IMG/VR virus record: IMGVR_UViG_3300035695_000001 | Location: 50,139 to 114,138 of that record | DNA: 64,000 nucleotides | Reading direction: 5' to 3' (one strand) | Source of the DNA: a virus | Part shown: positions 24,170 to 50,438 of the stretch, piece by piece | Layout of the letters: each line of letters opens with the position of its first letter | How positions within the stretch are numbered: position 1 is the first letter of the stretch | Notes under the pieces: model-generated | What the model was told of the DNA's origin: nothing | The model's database searches: none | Seen by the model: the letters and a program-made list of their open reading frames with translations, nothing else | Program-made: the position numbers and the translations under genes

Positions 24170-25234
24170 TCACGAGGGGGAGATGTCGGCGATGTACCCG
24201 TTGGCGTTGGGGTGCTCGACGCGAAGCTGGACGCGGACCCACACGTTGATGGGGTACGAATCGCCGTTCTTCGGGAGCACCTCGACGCGGAGTTGGAGGT
24301 TGACGGGCTGCTGGGTGTCGCCCGGCCCGAGGCCGGTGCCGCCGAACGCGGTCATGTCCTCGCCGAGCGTCTCGAACATCTCGGGGATGGCGCGGGGCAG
24401 GGCCTGAAGCTCGATCGTGTCGTTGTTGAGCATGATGAGCTTGTCGGCCGGGCAGGAGATGTCCGGCTCCAGCGGGATGTTGTTCCAGAAGAGCTTCTGG
24501 GTGCCGGCGCCGAACTGCTGCGGCATCTCGCCCGCGGTCTGCACGCGCTGGATCGGCGTGAAGAGGCTCTGGTACTTGGAGTGGACGGCGTACGAGCAGA
24601 GGATCCGGGTGGGCTCGCGGCCGGAGTTGGTCAGGATCTGCTGGTAGAGGGCCTGGAGCAGCGCCAGCGTGAGGGGGCGCGGGGTGCCGCCGTTGCTGAG
24701 CACGTTGCCGGCCCAGCCGGGGTAGGTGGAGCGGGAGATCCCGGCGTAGCTGCCGGACAGTTCCAGCGCGCCACCGAGCACACCGATCAGGTTCTGGTTG
24801 CCGTTCCCGTCGGTGCCGGTGCCGGTGTAGAAGTCGTCGTTGATGAGCTTGATCAGCCGGGAGATGGCGCCGCCGATCTTGGCGTCGAAGAGCCGCATCA
24901 GGATGTCGGGAGACCCGGGGCTCGTGGCCGCGGCGTCGACCGCGAGTCCCTCGATCTTGGTCGGGGCGCGGTAGTTGGCCCAGGCCAGGGTCGCCGGCAC
25001 GTCGGGGTCGTAGGTGAACTCCGAGGAGCTCACGTCCGAACCCGGCGCGAACGCGGCGGCCGGGGTCTCGGTGGTGGGGAACTCCGCGTCCCACGGCACG
25101 TTCTTGCCAGCCCCATCCACGATCTTGACGCCTTGGAGGGCGACGACCTTGCGGTTCCACTGGAACGCGAGGACACGGTTGAAGAGCTGGCTGAGCGCCG
25201 GGCTCAGAACGGACAGGGTGTCGATGTTGGACAT
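24170..25234 (-). CDS. Major capsid protein (HK97 fold)
   Basis: 354 aa after the scaffold; DFYTGTG...IGVL...YAGISRSTYPGW...LTLALL...G...LFWNNIPLEPD...P...LRVEHPNANGYIADI. Confidence 0.9.
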   Translation of the reverse strand: MSNIDTLSVLSPALSQLFNRVLAFQWNRKVVALQGVKIVDGAGKNVPWDAEFPTTETPAAAFAPGSDVSSSEFTYDPDVPATLAWANYRAPTKIEGLAVDAAATSPGSPDILMRLFDAKIGGAISRLIKLINDDFYTGTGTDGNGNQNLIGVLGGALELSGSYAGISRSTYPGWAGNVLSNGGTPRPLTLALLQALYQQILTNSGREPTRILCSYAVHSKYQSLFTPIQRVQTAGEMPQQFGAGTQKLFWNNIPLEPDISCPADKLIMLNNDTIELQALPRAIPEMFETLGEDMTAFGGTGLGPGDTQQPVNLQLRVEVLPKNGDSYPINVWVRVQLRVEHPNANGYIADISPS

Positions 25235-25283: not shown

Positions 25284-26183
25284 TCAGCCGATGAGGGTCT
25301 TGACGAGGCCGGCTTTGACCGCCTCGCGCATCTTGTCTTCGGGCTTGGTGGGCTGCGGCGGCGCACGCCGCCCACGGATGGGGCTCCCACCGCTGCCACC
25401 TGGATCGATGGGCGGGAGGATCGCCTCGGCCTCCGGCGTCTTCGCCCACTTTTTGAGGCCCTTATCGATGGGCTGCTCCTCGCCGTCGTCGTCGATGTAG
25501 ACGAGCTTGGAGCCCTTGCCGCCGTCGTCGTAGGCGATGCGCCCGTCGGTCTTGAGCACCGTCCACGCCAGCTTGACGCGCACCGGGTCCTTGACGCCGA
25601 TGTGCTCGGAGATGGCGTCCTTGGCCCTCGTGACGAGTGCCTCGGACCGGCGCTCGGTTTCCGCCTGCTCGCGGGCCTTGCGCTCTTCGGAGGCGATCTT
25701 GGCGGCCTCCTTGGTGGCCTTCTTCTGCTCCTCCAGGGCCTTCTTCTGCTCCTCCAGCAGCGCCTGCCCCTTGGCCTGCTCCTCGCGCAGGGCGAGGAAC
25801 TCGGGGTGCTTGCTGAGGTCCACCGGGGCGAGGGGCTGCTCCCCATCCTTGGGCTTCGCGGCCGTCCCGGCGAGCGCCGCGATGCGATCGTCCATGGACT
25901 TGGTGACCTTGGTCAGGCGCTCGTCGAGAGCCTTGGTGAACCTCTCGGCGAGCGTCTCCCCGTGGGTCGCCAGTTCCTGCTCGCGCTCGGTCTTGTACTG
26001 GGCAGCGCGCTCGGCCCGCTTCGCCTCCGCCTCCTTCTCCCGCTTGGTGAAGGCGGCATGTGCCGCCTGGTTGGCAGCCGCGGTCGCCTTTTCCTCCGCC
26101 GTCTTGGCGGCGAGCGCCGTGACCTCGTCCGCGGAGAGGGTCTTGTTCTGGTTCTGCCCCGGAGGGGTGATCGGATCGGCCAT
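25284..26183 (-). CDS. Capsid scaffolding protein
   Basis: Start re-called at MADPITP. Charged coiled coil ending GLKKWAKTPEAEAILPPIDPGGSG; immediately upstream of the MCP. Confidence 0.8.
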   Translation of the reverse strand: MADPITPPGQNQNKTLSADEVTALAAKTAEEKATAAANQAAHAAFTKREKEAEAKRAERAAQYKTEREQELATHGETLAERFTKALDERLTKVTKSMDDRIAALAGTAAKPKDGEQPLAPVDLSKHPEFLALREEQAKGQALLEEQKKALEEQKKATKEAAKIASEERKAREQAETERRSEALVTRAKDAISEHIGVKDPVRVKLAWTVLKTDGRIAYDDGGKGSKLVYIDDDGEEQPIDKGLKKWAKTPEAEAILPPIDPGGSGGSPIRGRRAPPQPTKPEDKMREAVKAGLVKTLIG

Positions 26184-26389
26184 GGGTCTCCGTTCCAGCG
26201 TTGGCTCGCGCTGGCTCGTAAATCGGTCTGGTTCGGCAGCAGAGCGCGGTACCGACACCCGCGCGTGCTGTGCGGCTTCAGGGCGCCGCAGCCCAACCCG
26301 GCGAGGTCCGGGAGCCCATCGGTGGTGCTGCTACTGCGATGCGTGGTCAGGCACCGACAAGCCTGGCCATGCGGTCCGGCCGAAGCCGG

Positions 26390-26938
26390 TCAGCTCTTGC
26401 TCTTGGTGGTGCCGCCCATGTTCTTGTAGACCACCATGACGGCGCCATACGGCGCGGAGTAGCGATCCCAGTAAGGCATCACCGCCTCCTTGGCCTTCTC
26501 CCATGTGCTCTCGTCCTCGATGAACGACGGCGGGTTGTCTGGGCGCTCTGGGTTCGACGGATCCTTCTCGACCCAGGCCCGTTCCTCGTCCGAGAGCCCG
26601 GCCATCAGGTCGGCGTCTTCGAGCCGACTCGCACCGCTCACTTGCTGGGCGTGCATGTCGTACCAGGGGTCCCCAGGCTGGAACGTGGGCACGTAGCCGA
26701 CGTAGGCAACGGGGTCCTGGCCGACCTGCTCGTAGGCCAGGAAGCGGTGGTGCCCGTCGGGGATGTGGTGGACGCCGTCGGGGGTCTCGACGAGCACCAT
26801 CGGTTGGAGTTTGCCGCCAGCCTGGAGCGTGGCGACGAAGTGTGCGACGCGGTCGGGCTCCTTGGTCGCCGTCCACGTCTCGCGGTCACGGGTGTCTACC
26901 GTGTGGATCGGTACGATCTTGGGGCCACACCATTCCAT
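26390..26938 (-). CDS. ParB/Srx-like nuclease-domain protein
   Basis: RVAHFVATLQAGGKLQPMVLV...IPDGHHRFLAY is the ParB-N signature. Confidence 0.8.
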   Translation of the reverse strand: MEWCGPKIVPIHTVDTRDRETWTATKEPDRVAHFVATLQAGGKLQPMVLVETPDGVHHIPDGHHRFLAYEQVGQDPVAYVGYVPTFQPGDPWYDMHAQQVSGASRLEDADLMAGLSDEERAWVEKDPSNPERPDNPPSFIEDESTWEKAKEAVMPYWDRYSAPYGAVMVVYKNMGGTTKSKS

Positions 26939-26941
26939 GGG

Positions 26942-27577
26942 TCAGCCCTTCACCTTCACGCCCGTCGCCCGGCCCGCGAACGGAGCGCCGCCAGTGGCGC
27001 GCTTCACGATCCGGTCGTCCAGTTCATCGTCGTCGTACTCGCCACGCATGTGCCTGTTCATGTCTGGCGACCCGAACCGCCACGCATCGACCGGCGTGTA
27101 GTGCATGGCCTCGTTCTCTGGATGCGCTGGTCGTGCATCGGCAGGGAGGTGGTCGACCTTCTCCACCTTGATCGCGCGGAACGGGTCGTGCGCCACCATC
27201 GACATCAGCCGACCCATCTCTGCTCGCTGCGCTGCGTCTCCGCCAGCGGCAGCGTGGTGGTCGAACTCGAACTGGATCGCAGTAAGATCGACTTTGAATA
27301 CACCGTCCGCCGTCTGCACGTAGTTGAGGAAGTGGCCAGGCACCGACCCGACGTAGGCGTCAAACCCGTTCGCCTTCGCGACCGTGGCGAAAGCATCTGA
27401 TGTCGCGCCGCACTGGCGCACTGACTTCGTCAGCAGGATGTGCTTGTGGACGAAGTAGGGGACCTCTTTGTTGAGGAATGAATCCAGATCCGCAGAGGAC
27501 TTCTGGTCCCCGCCGCCTTCGCTTCCACCGCTTGTCCACTGTCCGTTGGCGGCGCGCGCCTGCTCCTGGCTGCCCAT
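26942..27577 (-). CDS. Papain/transglutaminase-like Cys-His-Asp enzyme with N-terminal RxxxGxW motif
   Basis: QCGATS...PGHFLN...VDLTAIQF gives a C-H-D order; N-terminus QARAANGQWTSGG. Confidence 0.65.
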   Translation of the reverse strand: MGSQEQARAANGQWTSGGSEGGGDQKSSADLDSFLNKEVPYFVHKHILLTKSVRQCGATSDAFATVAKANGFDAYVGSVPGHFLNYVQTADGVFKVDLTAIQFEFDHHAAAGGDAAQRAEMGRLMSMVAHDPFRAIKVEKVDHLPADARPAHPENEAMHYTPVDAWRFGSPDMNRHMRGEYDDDELDDRIVKRATGGAPFAGRATGVKVKG

Positions 27578-27579
27578 GG

Positions 27580-28260
27580 TCAGACCCGCAGCACGCCGTC
27601 AGCGCCACGCTGGATCTCGGAGCCGTCGGTCACGAACCTGGAGGCTCGACCAGCCTCCGGTGCCGGCGCGGCCTTGCCCATCGGGTCGGAGCGCACCCAG
27701 GCGATGGCCTCTGGCGGGAAGTCTTCGGCGAGTTGCTCGTAGACGTCCTCTTGCGCTTGCTCCGATGTGGGCAAGCCTGCGTCGACCTTCCACGACCACT
27801 TGAGCACCGCGCTCTGGATCGTCATGACGTCGTTGGCCGCCGCCTGCATCCCGAGCGCGAGCAGATCCTTGATGGCCTGCTCCGCCAGCGCGAGCCAGGC
27901 CGACGAGCGGTTGACCACCAGCGCCCCGAGCACGCAGCCCTCGACGACCCCGCTTGGCCACGGGCGGAGCCTGGTGCTGGCCGCCAGTTCCTCGACGGAG
28001 CCAGACGACTGGCCGCCCAGTTGCTCGACCAACTCGGCAAGGGTGTCCGCGTATCCGTCGAGCGCCTCGGCGTAGTCCCCGATCAGCCGGTGCAGCGCCA
28101 CCGCCTCGCACCCGCGAACACGGTGGTGTCCCGCATAGATCCCGGCCCTGAGCACCTGTACGTCGATGCTCAGCCCGTCCAGGATGGCGACCGCGCTCCG
28201 TCGCACGTCGTCGTCGAAGTGCCGCATCGGGGAGCGGCGGAGGATGGGCGGTTGGGCCAT
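27580..28260 (-). CDS. Dps/ferritin-like protein with C-terminal extension
   Basis: GHHRVRGCEAVALHRLIGDYAEALDGYADTLAELVEQLGG aligns by eye with the Dps HWNVxG...LH...D...AER...LGG signature. Confidence 0.8.
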   Translation of the reverse strand: MAQPPILRRSPMRHFDDDVRRSAVAILDGLSIDVQVLRAGIYAGHHRVRGCEAVALHRLIGDYAEALDGYADTLAELVEQLGGQSSGSVEELAASTRLRPWPSGVVEGCVLGALVVNRSSAWLALAEQAIKDLLALGMQAAANDVMTIQSAVLKWSWKVDAGLPTSEQAQEDVYEQLAEDFPPEAIAWVRSDPMGKAAPAPEAGRASRFVTDGSEIQRGADGVLRV

Positions 28261-28263
28261 GAG

Positions 28264-30189
28264 TCAGGGTCCGGCTGGCGTGGGTGCGCCTGGGCGCGGC
28301 GGTGGAGTCTTGGCCGGTGGCGGCTGAGCCTTGCCAGCGGGCACGGCCGGCTTGCCTGGTTGGGCAGTGGGCCCCTTGCTCGGCGCGGCGGGAGCCTTGG
28401 CTGCCGCCTTCGCCTTGGCGGTCTGAGCCAGCGCCGCGGGGGACGGAGGAGGGGGGCGCCTGGGAGGGGTCGGACCCACGGGCCGCTGTGCCGCAGTTGG
28501 AGCGACCTTCGCCGCACCGGGGGACGGAAGCCCCTGCTGCTGGGCCAGCGCCGCAGCCTGAGCAGCGGCGTCTGCCTTCGCCTGCTCTGCGTCAGCGGCG
28601 GCCTGTTCCAGGTGGGCCTTCAGTTCCCCGATGATCGTGGTCATCGTCTGCTGCGAGACGCCTGGGAGCCACTTGCGGAACCACCACGACCAGTATTCGG
28701 CCTTGGCTGTCCCGCTGGGGAGATCCATCGGAGAGCCAGGACCGGCACCGAGGATCTGGACGGCCTCGCCGAGGAGCGCGGCACGGTCCTCGTCTGGGTC
28801 GAACTGGTCCAGACCGTGGACCGCCCACTTGACGTTCTCGCCGCGGGCGTCGGAGATGATCTCGTAGACCCTGCGCGCAGCGTCCCGAAGGATGGCGGCC
28901 AGGGCCTTGAGCACCACGCAGAAGTCGTTGTTGTCGGCTGACTTGCTCTCCCCAGACCGGCCCAGCGCGGTGGACGTGTTGGAGATCGACGCGGCCATCT
29001 TGCCGGTGACCCGGAAGATTTCGTCCGTCAGGTCTTGGAGTTGGGTGGCGACGATCTGGAACGGGGCGGTATCCGGCCCCTCGAAGGCGAGTTTGTCGCC
29101 CTGGGCCAGGACCACGAACCCCTTCGACTCGTACTGCTTCTTTGGGTCATCGCCGCGGGACTGCTGCTGGGCGACGTCGGCTGGGAGCGGGCCGTGGAAG
29201 GCCCCGGTCTGCGGGCCCAGATAGACCACCGGGATCGTGATCAGGCTGCGCTGCTGGGCGGCGAGGAGTTCGGACCGGCGCCGCCACAGTTCCAGGCAGA
29301 GGAGGCCGGCGAGGTTCCCCAGCCAGAGAGTGTCCGGCAGTTCGATCTCGACGATGGGGATCTCACGGAACGTCGTCGGGCCGGACTGCTCGGCGATCTC
29401 GACCTCGACTTCCGGCTGTGGCTTCTTCCCCTTGACGATGGGGACGTTGTACGTCGTCCAGGTGACCTGGCCGTTCTCGTCGAGGTTCCAAACCTTGTAG
29501 ACCTCGACTGGGTTGTCGACGGGGTCCTCTGGGGTGGCCCGGCGGGTCTCGATCTTCCTGGTGATGCACCAGGAGAAGCGACCGACCGTGAAGCGAGCGG
29601 TGCCACCACCGTCCAGCGGAACCGCTTGCCGGACCTGGTCGTGGTACTCCCACCAGAGCATCTCCTCCGGTGGCATCTCGTACACGTACGGCTGCCCGAG
29701 CCCAGCCGACTTGGAGTCCGCCCGGTTCTTCGGGGCCGGGCCAGTGTTGGCCGGGAAGTCTACCGCGATCAGCGCCCGCTTCTTGACCAGCGCGGTACGC
29801 AGCGTGTCCTGGAGCACGCCCACGAAACTGGTCCCGCGAAGGTCGGCGTCGTCGGAGAGCGCCTCGTACACCTCTGGCTCGGGGACTTCCCCTGGGGTGT
29901 TGGGGTCGTCAGCGTCTCCCGCCGGGGTGACGGAGACCGGCCCAGAGAACATCGCCGAGGCGTACTGGTTGACGATCTGGCCAAGGTAGCCGACGTAGCC
30001 CGCCAGATCCTTCCGCGCCTTGTAGCGTTCTGGACTCTCGCCTGGCGCTTTCTTCAGGTACTTGTCGACGTTCTCCTGGATCTGGATGCCGCCGCAGTAG
30101 AGGTCGTCCAGCGTCTCCCACCAGGCAGCATCGTAGCCGCGACAACCGTCGGACTTGCCGCGCTTGGCAGAGAGGAGGCCGTACTTCAC
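28264..30189 (-). CDS. Portal protein
   Basis: WWETLDDLYCGG...YLKKAPGESPERYKARKDLAGY, DDADLRGTSF, FREIPIV, SGESKSAD; Pro/Ala/Lys-rich tail. Confidence 0.9.
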   Translation of the reverse strand: MKYGLLSAKRGKSDGCRGYDAAWWETLDDLYCGGIQIQENVDKYLKKAPGESPERYKARKDLAGYVGYLGQIVNQYASAMFSGPVSVTPAGDADDPNTPGEVPEPEVYEALSDDADLRGTSFVGVLQDTLRTALVKKRALIAVDFPANTGPAPKNRADSKSAGLGQPYVYEMPPEEMLWWEYHDQVRQAVPLDGGGTARFTVGRFSWCITRKIETRRATPEDPVDNPVEVYKVWNLDENGQVTWTTYNVPIVKGKKPQPEVEVEIAEQSGPTTFREIPIVEIELPDTLWLGNLAGLLCLELWRRRSELLAAQQRSLITIPVVYLGPQTGAFHGPLPADVAQQQSRGDDPKKQYESKGFVVLAQGDKLAFEGPDTAPFQIVATQLQDLTDEIFRVTGKMAASISNTSTALGRSGESKSADNNDFCVVLKALAAILRDAARRVYEIISDARGENVKWAVHGLDQFDPDEDRAALLGEAVQILGAGPGSPMDLPSGTAKAEYWSWWFRKWLPGVSQQTMTTIIGELKAHLEQAAADAEQAKADAAAQAAALAQQQGLPSPGAAKVAPTAAQRPVGPTPPRRPPPPSPAALAQTAKAKAAAKAPAAPSKGPTAQPGKPAVPAGKAQPPPAKTPPPRPGAPTPAGP

Positions 30190-50030: not shown

Positions 50031-50438
50031 ATGGGGAGCCTGATCGAAGAGCGGAAGCGCGCTGCGTCCGTGATCCGCAAGCACGAGAGCATCGAGCCGG
50101 AGTACATCGCCAACGCCGTCGAATCTGGTGCGATGGACGCCTGGGAGGCGATGGTGAAGGTCAACGTCCTGCCCGCGGTGGAGACGGTGGACGCACTCTG
50201 CCGCCTGCGTGTGGTGGAGGCTGAGGCCGATGGCCGGATCGTCGGCACAGACGCCGTGCTCCTTCGAGCGCTGGGTGCCCCCGTCCAGGAATACGTCCGG
50301 CGGATGTCCGACGAGGCCCTCTGGCTCTCGCGCGTGTACAGGGACCCGAACATCGACGCCGAGATCGATCGGCGGCCCCACCTTCGAGAGAGGCGAGCGG
50401 CAGAACTGGCGGCGGATGCCCAAGGAGGAGCCAGATGA
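50031..50438 (+). CDS. Hypothetical protein
   Basis: GGAGG RBS; starts MGSLIEERK. Confidence 0.65.
   Translation: MGSLIEERKRAASVIRKHESIEPEYIANAVESGAMDAWEAMVKVNVLPAVETVDALCRLRVVEAEADGRIVGTDAVLLRALGAPVQEYVRRMSDEALWLSRVYRDPNIDAEIDRRPHLRERRAAELAADAQGGAR

Follow-up and report, generated by a model that had tools for sequence, protein, structure and literature searches.

We have analysed a window of 64,000 nucleotides (nt) from a phage of ~163 kb (positions 50,139 to 114,138 of the IMG/VR virus record IMGVR_UViG_3300035695_000001, which is complete, 162,811 bp long and carries direct terminal repeats), and report here on window positions 26390–28260. Three open reading frames (ORFs) lie there between the portal and the scaffold genes, the first for a Dps-like protein, the last for a ParB-like protein and a middle one for a protein of another kind. 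It is probable that the two outer ORFs derive from a single Dps-ParB head gene which now exists in pieces and is not spliced, that the break lies within the ParB-like domain, and that the pieces yield three separate proteins. The ancestral gene would have encoded one protein, composed of a Dps core and a ParB/sulfiredoxin (Srx)-like domain of the kind that is fused to portal and MuF proteins.

The comparison group consists of four lineages, all of them metagenomic: the window phage, L001/L002/L011, L003/L004, and L005. More relatives were not found beyond these four by a word-index protein search with the Dps and ParB ORFs or in IMG/VR and the JGI metagenomes, and a tblastn search with the ParB ORF against 50,697 deposited phage genomes returned zero matches. 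In the related phage L001/L002/L011, a single gene between portal and scaffold encodes an uninterrupted Dps-ParB protein of 313 amino acids (aa) (P0002; QLAEDFPSEAIDWVLHVDWEGPVVVPL ... DGHHRYL), which is 63% identical to the window protein over the Dps part. It keeps the 4-residue spacing that is standard in the family and bears no scar. The fusion that the earlier note on this DNA had proposed as ancestral does therefore occur, at the same position of the head module.

The other lineages carry the gene in a split form. The Dps ORF of the window reads QLAEDFPPEAIAWVRSDPM before it enters a C-terminal tail. In L003/L004 the same helices, the residues SDPM and a homologous tail (ASRFGTDASEITTDADGTLRV) close the Dps ORF, and the ParB ORF (MGWRGPKVVPF...) starts via a TGATG overlap. 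In L005 the Dps ORF is longer by 12 profile positions (WVRDVEWSGPQTVGL) before it reaches the same tail, and the ParB ORF starts via an ATGA overlap. The middle gene is absent from both, so that the tail segment of ~100 nt splits the gene by itself in these two lineages. Among the relatives the middle gene is found only in the window phage, being absent from L001 as well as from L003 and L005.

Because two lineages carry the tail split without the middle gene, a history in two steps is suggested, with the ParB-like domain broken after its helix 2 and before its strand 1. In the first step, a segment of ~100 nt would have given the Dps half a tail of 33 residues and a stop, while the ParB half would have come to start at the abutting ATG; this state survives in the two other split lineages. 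In the second step, which would concern the window phage only, an enzyme gene of 636 nt would have landed exactly in the stop/start junction. The earlier note had supposed that an effector gene interrupted the fusion. This stands insofar as the intervening gene is enzyme- or effector-like, but the 743 nt between the halves are not one insert, since the tail alone splits two lineages.

To assign the two halves, we used a profile of the ParB-like domain that was built from outside proteins only, with this phage group excluded. Residues 166–191 of the Dps ORF match positions 3–28 of this profile (E 1e-8), and residues 2–109 of the ParB ORF match positions 30–136 (E 7e-37). As the two ranges complement each other, the ParB ORF and the C-terminal part of the Dps ORF are, by profile comparison, the complementary halves of one domain. 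We have also searched residues 165–313 of P0002 against 1.8 billion representative proteins and obtained 684 matches, 495 of them below 1e-10. Among the matches listed, 144 of the 148 proteins outside the phage group have the domain in one piece, running from the VYxQLxxDFPxxAIxWV helices through WxGP to DGHHR and onward, and the continuous motif is present in 131 of these 148 listed proteins. This bears out the statement in the earlier note that QLAExFPPxAIxWV...WxGP is one continuous N-terminal ParB-like segment of portal, MuF and polyvalent head proteins. The segment runs into WxGP, and is not one that normally ends Dps proteins and never precedes a WxGP-ParB, which the note had named as the finding that would speak against it.

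The AlphaFold2 (AF2) model of the unsplit domain (P0002, residues 165–313) has a mean confidence (pLDDT) of 89.7 and places the break between the helix at 22–30 and the strand at 32–40. The helices that are orphaned on the Dps protein of the window correspond to helices 8–17 and 22–30 of this model, with pLDDT ~97. When the model, which is that of the fused P0002 and not of the split proteins of the window, was searched with Foldseek, it matched sulfiredoxin (E 2.4e-4), PadC, ParB, Noc, KorB and SerK with probability 1.00. The DGHHR at residues 61–65 of the window ParB ORF is a G-x-x-R-type active-site motif, whose D, G, H and R do not vary in either of two alignments, of 50 and of 71 domains. 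The usual partners of the domain are portal proteins (Portal_Mu, SPP1_portal, Phage_portal), MuF, a Mu-like protease, NUDIX and ADP-ribosyltransferase (ART) domains. The domain also occurs in giant portal fusions (P0019, P0014, P0033), for example in one of 1425 aa that joins portal, NUDIX, ParB-like and ADP-ribosyltransferase parts, and in tandem pairs such as P0018. Two further proteins, P0040 and P0030, were considered as split forms and rejected, since each is a ParB-like gene that stands by itself in a different setting and has no Dps gene in front of it. In L010, the frame of such a stand-alone gene stays open upstream of the called start over part of the helix region.

A cut inside a fold may also be taken as a sign of decay, in which case the helices left on the Dps protein, its tail and the fragment of ParB would all be non-functional remnants of a broken gene. 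The Pfam ParB models do stay below threshold: the window ParB ORF scores 14.4 bits with ParBc_2 against a gathering threshold of 23.6. Of the family, only 6 of 71 members reach E < 0.01 with ParBc_2 and only 2 of 71 with ParB_N. However, the ORFs are intact in three diverged lineages at 50–60% identity, and the window ParB ORF retains the family-invariant G, P, W, D, G, H and R, which together with the kept helix motif argues against decay. The orphan helices are 67% identical between the window and L003, compared with 50% for the Dps core, and retain the near-invariant L, D and W positions of the family; being better conserved than the core and unchanged at these positions, they should still be in use. 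Codon statistics point in the same direction. The G+C content at third codon positions (GC3) is 0.79–0.88 in all three ORFs, as is typical for coding frames, and in the tail non-synonymous differences are fewer than synonymous ones (see below). Overall, decay has little chance of being the right explanation, and we keep to a gene in pieces whose parts would be functional.

The Dps half itself is recognizable. A profile made from four homologs, when compared with the PDB, matches 6tgt/2c2j (E 3e-12) and 1dps (E 4e-10) over residues 15–163, which cover the four-helix bundle, while the Pfam Ferritin model alone stays below threshold on the window protein (15.7 bits against 24.5). The positions of the ferroxidase site, His46, His57, Asp72 and Glu76, are the same in all four homologs and correspond in the alignment to the HW..G, LH and D..AE motifs of Deinococcus Dps2. 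By these profile matches, the 226-aa ORF encodes a Dps mini-ferritin. The database gene call for this protein (P0001, 215 aa) begins at Met12. Since the homologs conserve the LRRSP upstream of Met12, the 226-aa start, which lies 3 nt past the portal stop (window 28258–28266), is more likely the correct one. A second, distant ferritin-ParB fusion is P0055 (467 aa, with an N-terminal extension of 110 aa and a Pfam Ferritin match at E 2e-11), encoded downstream of a 657-aa gene on a contig of 8852 bp; on account of it, the pairing of Dps or ferritin with ParB appears to be recurrent in phages.

For the last 23 codons of the tail, the proportion of synonymous differences (pS, 0.46–0.68) exceeds that of non-synonymous differences (pN, 0.16–0.33) in all three pairs of lineages, and GC3 is 0.82–0.94. 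As this excess of synonymous differences goes together with a high GC3, the tail is evidently translated in frame and under purifying selection. Several ideas on its source were tried and rejected. It could be aligned by MAFFT to the N-terminal region of ParB (RxxxFV...DGxxR) as if it were a degenerate duplicate, but an independent ParB profile gives it negative scores, and a profile of the tail found nothing in the ParB genes in any frame. A recurrent targeting peptide is not indicated either, since the six-frame translation of the 163-kb genome holds no second copy (the best other match has E 0.017 over 13 residues). The tail and the middle gene do not form a joint mobile cassette, as the genes upstream of the middle-ORF homologs in L006–L008 lack the tail.

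The middle ORF has six homologs of 36–52% identity in unrelated phage-like contexts. Because of these contexts, the middle gene is to be seen, on sequence grounds, as an independent family and a separate later addition. Searches of the middle ORF against Pfam and PHROG gave no match. C56, H82 and D97 do not vary among 7 homologs, where they stand in RQCG, PGHF and VD, with the order and spacing of a Cys-His-Asp core, and one of the seven matches Transglut_core2 (E 0.0017). The AF2 model (pLDDT 82) has as its nearest solved folds the arylamine N-acetyltransferases (NAT), SseI, TglA, LapG, protein glutaminase and factor XIII, though these matches are weak (Z 4–6, best 5.9; Foldseek E at least 0.29). 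The product thus looks like a putative transglutaminase/papain-like Cys-His-Asp enzyme, that is, an enzyme or effector. Both long contigs with homologs of the middle ORF (L006, 60–1550; L008, 8017–9846) encode an Aminotran_5 protein within a few kb.

The features of the locus are collected in the table. The genes follow each other on the minus strand in the order portal, Dps ORF, middle ORF, ParB ORF, scaffold and major capsid protein (MCP), of which the first four abut tightly. The seams read TGA-ctc-ATG (portal/Dps, a gap of 3 nt), TGA-cc-ATG (Dps/middle) and TGA-ccc-ATG (middle/ParB), so every downstream ORF has its own ATG 2–3 nt past the preceding stop. No promoter-like or terminator-like sites were found within 26390–28260. 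The C-terminal extension of the ParB ORF carries the motif NPPSFIxDExTWExAKEAVMP.W..Y..PY..VM.VYK.MGG.

Table. Features of the Dps–ParB region and its neighbours, in window coordinates
Feature	Position	Strand	Remarks
Portal gene, 641 aa	28264–30189	minus	phrog_145 portal protein, E 3.8e-33
Dps-like ORF, 226 aa	27580–28260	minus	portal side of the middle ORF
Dps (ferritin-like) core, residues 1–163 of the 226-aa ORF	27772–28260	minus	profile match to solved Dps; phrog_3636, E 6e-6
First two helices of the ParB/Srx-like domain, orphaned, Dps-ORF residues 166–191	27688–27765	minus	profile positions 3–28, E 1e-8
Conserved 33-aa tail (M194 to V226) and TGA stop	27580–27681	minus	putative older insert breaking the domain; homologous tail in L003/L004 and L005
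Middle ORF, 211 aa, 636-nt gene	26942–27577	minus	between the Dps ORF and the ParB ORF
ParB-like ORF, 182 aa	26390–26938	minus	begins MEWCGPKIVPI
Rest of the ParB/Srx-like domain (strand 1 onward, WCGP ... DGHHR), ParB-ORF residues 1–112	26603–26938	minus	phrog_1033 ParB-like, E 1.5e-6
C-terminal extension of the ParB ORF, ~70 aa	26390–26602	minus	common to L003 (7020–7271); absent from fused P0002; no PHROG match
Putative scaffold gene	25284–26258	minus	assigned by its place, with the ParB ORF on one side and the MCP gene on the other; weak match to phrog_4765; synteny with L001 and L003
Major capsid protein (MCP) gene	24170–25234	minus	PF17236 SU10_MCP, E 1e-7; phrog_9953, E 7e-17

The earlier note had gone further and proposed that splicing or ribosomal bypass might restore the Dps-ParB protein by leaving out 26939–27681. 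Its coordinates and peptide strings are correct, as are the junctions CCGATGG and CCCATGG (coding strand) and the length of 743 nt. The join is in frame as it said, but trivially, as any join from codon boundary to codon boundary is. It puts 6 residues between WV and WxGP, whereas the family spacing is 4 in 125 of 133 instances, and because of this difference the boundaries of the excision are probably off by about two codons.

That one 743-nt element interrupts the gene and is overcome by RNA splicing or bypass has hardly any chance of being true. Bypass of the T4 gene 60 type uses matched take-off and landing codons, a stop after the take-off, a gap of ~50 nt and a take-off hairpin. There is a loose likeness to such codons, since one ATGGGC stands where the helix segment ends (27681) and another where the middle ORF begins (27577), and in L003 the tail is flanked by GATGGGC. 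However, the codon after the first ATGGGC is AAG, so that no stop stands behind the would-be take-off codon; the gap would be 104 nt (to the enzyme ORF) or 743 nt (to ParB) instead of 50 nt; and the second ATGGGC would land on the enzyme ORF, not on ParB. Rfam returned no family, introns included, at E up to 1 on both strands of 26000–28600, and an intron was rejected on this result. The folding energies in the three lineages are not more stable than those of shuffles (z −0.4, +0.2 and −1.2); short stems in the tail RNA are visible by eye in the window and in L003, yet a conserved hairpin was rejected on these energies. In addition, the insert is composite, consisting of the tail segment and the middle gene, and the tail is conserved as a protein under purifying selection. 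With an empty Rfam search, unremarkable folding and a landing site on the enzyme ORF, splicing and bypass are very unlikely. A split intein was also dismissed, since the tail does not start with Cys or Ser, no His-Asn end is present, and the predicted fold of the middle ORF resembles Cys-His-Asp enzymes and is not HINT-like.

A further way to join the products would be recoding at the stops, giving minor fusion proteins: readthrough of the TGA would yield an enzyme-ParB protein, and a −1 shift near the end of the tail would extend Dps into the next ORF. The middle and ParB ORFs are indeed in the same frame, with only TGA CCC between them (window 26936–26944, minus strand), and in the window as well as in L003 and L005 the ORF that follows Dps is read in the −1 frame with respect to it. 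Nevertheless, a slippery heptamer conserved among the three lineages is not found ahead of the stop, the ParB frame of L005 is closed 18 nt upstream of the ParB ATG, and the folding test gave no sign of structured RNA. Recoding, then, is also quite improbable, and separate translation of three proteins should be preferred.

On the other hand, several observations weigh against the history proposed here. By MCP the window is closest to the fused L001 (74% identity, versus 40% to L003), and its Dps core is likewise closer to the fused phage (63%) than to L003 (50%), while its ParB part is only 48% identical to that of L001 and 62–64% identical to those of the split lineages. This conflict between genes within a small clade calls for either recombination at the junction or a secondary re-fusion. 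In L005 the tail comes 12 profile positions later than it does in the window and in L003, which poorly fits a single insertion. The direct repeats at the junctions (GGG(T)CTGACC(C)ATGG around the middle gene, GACC..ATGGGCA around the tail) are only modestly unusual: 3% and 1.3% of comparable contexts in the same genome score equally well, and as target-site duplications they are at most suggestive. These short repeats may have been left behind by illegitimate recombination. Finally, for the re-association of the halves, which is discussed below, we have conservation and a weak prediction only.

The gene conflict can be read in another way, in which the split form with the tail is the older one in the clade, the 313-aa protein is a re-fusion produced by deletion of the tail, and the window phage separately gained the enzyme gene. 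By MCP and Dps core the window phage stands nearest to the fused one, but its tail has the same position as that of the more distant L003, and on a tree of the form ((window, L001), L003, L005) the split would be ancestral. Against this, the fused protein has the standard 4-residue spacing without a scar, and in the ParB tree it is set apart from the split forms, which group with the stand-alone P0030. At a deeper level, moreover, the domain is continuous nearly everywhere, and an exchange by recombination at the junction, a common event in phages, explains the disagreement between genes equally well. We thus regard re-fusion as unlikely, and hold it more probable that the continuous gene came first and was then cut. 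The head modules show mosaicism, with an apparent exchange boundary at or near the split.

As to how the pieces may work, three proteins would be made from one late transcript through tight stop-start translational coupling. The orphan helices on the Dps protein might dock on the remainder of ParB and so rebuild the domain non-covalently. From the gene position and the usual fusions of the domain to portal and MuF, all three proteins may be expected inside the head and to be delivered with the DNA. We have also predicted a complex of Dps residues 160–226 with ParB residues 1–115, and obtained a score of 0.56 against 0.01 for the best control. The mark that was applied lets 58 of 80 solved complexes and 2 of 110 mismatches pass; of those that pass, however, only 7 of the solved complexes have scores of 0.60 or less, as do both mismatches. 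The agreement of contacts between runs is at least 3%, and the pLDDT of the partners is at least 47. The pass may reflect the mere likeness of the halves to solved ParB folds. The halves most likely function as separate, coupled proteins, while their re-association is a weakly supported prediction. It is conceivable, though rather doubtful, that the split domain is a two-piece docking device, in which the helices (perhaps with the tail) on the Dps cage capture the ParB remainder non-covalently in the capsid and the seam is a slot for cargo genes, such as that of the Cys-His-Asp enzyme, which could enter it and leave the expression of both halves intact. Should the two halves come together again in this way, they would form a split-domain docking system of natural origin.

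The locus can be compared with several known systems. Fractured genes with split inteins (Dassa et al. 2009; PMC2677866) are laid out as an N-half, a free-standing gene and a C-half. The locus has the same layout; unlike those genes it has no intein, its tail starts with Met-Gly, its middle ORF ends with Lys-Gly and not with His-Asn, and two lineages are without the middle gene. Phage ParB/Srx-like domains in polyvalent proteins have been proposed to be packaged and delivered DNases regulated by nucleoside triphosphates (NTPs) (Iyer et al. 2017; PMC5512222). Like those proteins, the ParB half has a ParB/Srx fold encoded among late virion genes, with relatives fused to portal, MuF, protease, NUDIX and ART; unlike them, its partner is a Dps mini-ferritin and the domain is split over two polypeptides. 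Ferritin or Dps has 0 occurrences in that survey.

With Dps mini-ferritins the Dps half shares the profile match to the four-helix bundle and the conserved His/His/Asp/Glu. It differs from them in its genomic place, immediately behind the portal gene in the head operon of a phage, and in having a C-terminus with two helices of a foreign domain and a novel tail. The pairing of Dps and ParB beside the portal points, as far as the gene content can tell, to a DNA-coating or iron-handling protein that may travel with a ParB-type NTPase or nuclease in the virion.

The nrdA of Aeromonas phage Aeh1 is a gene in pieces, split by the homing-endonuclease gene mobE. Like nrdA, the gene described here is cut within a domain by a free-standing gene, and its halves are separate polypeptides that are expected to re-associate. 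Unlike in nrdA, the inserted gene is transglutaminase/papain-like and not a homing endonuclease of the GIY-YIG, HNH or LAGLIDADG kind (no match in Pfam or PHROG, and nearest folds among Cys-His-Asp enzymes), and the break would pre-date it, being caused by the tail segment of ~100 nt. There is no nuclease to explain mobility. Morons are accessory genes inserted between conserved phage genes. The enzyme gene resembles them in being present in one lineage only, precisely between coupled ORFs, with relatives in unrelated phage-like contigs; it differs in having no promoter or terminator of its own and in being threaded into a coupled junction inside a former single gene.

Gene splitting and moron insertion are thus already known phenomena; what this case adds is an unusually clear series of intermediates, together with a Dps-ParB pairing that we did not find described. 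Three allelic states of one head-module gene are found in related phages, namely continuous, split by the tail, and split by the tail plus the enzyme gene. This series would show how a domain is cut stepwise and how accessory genes later come to use the seam as their landing site.

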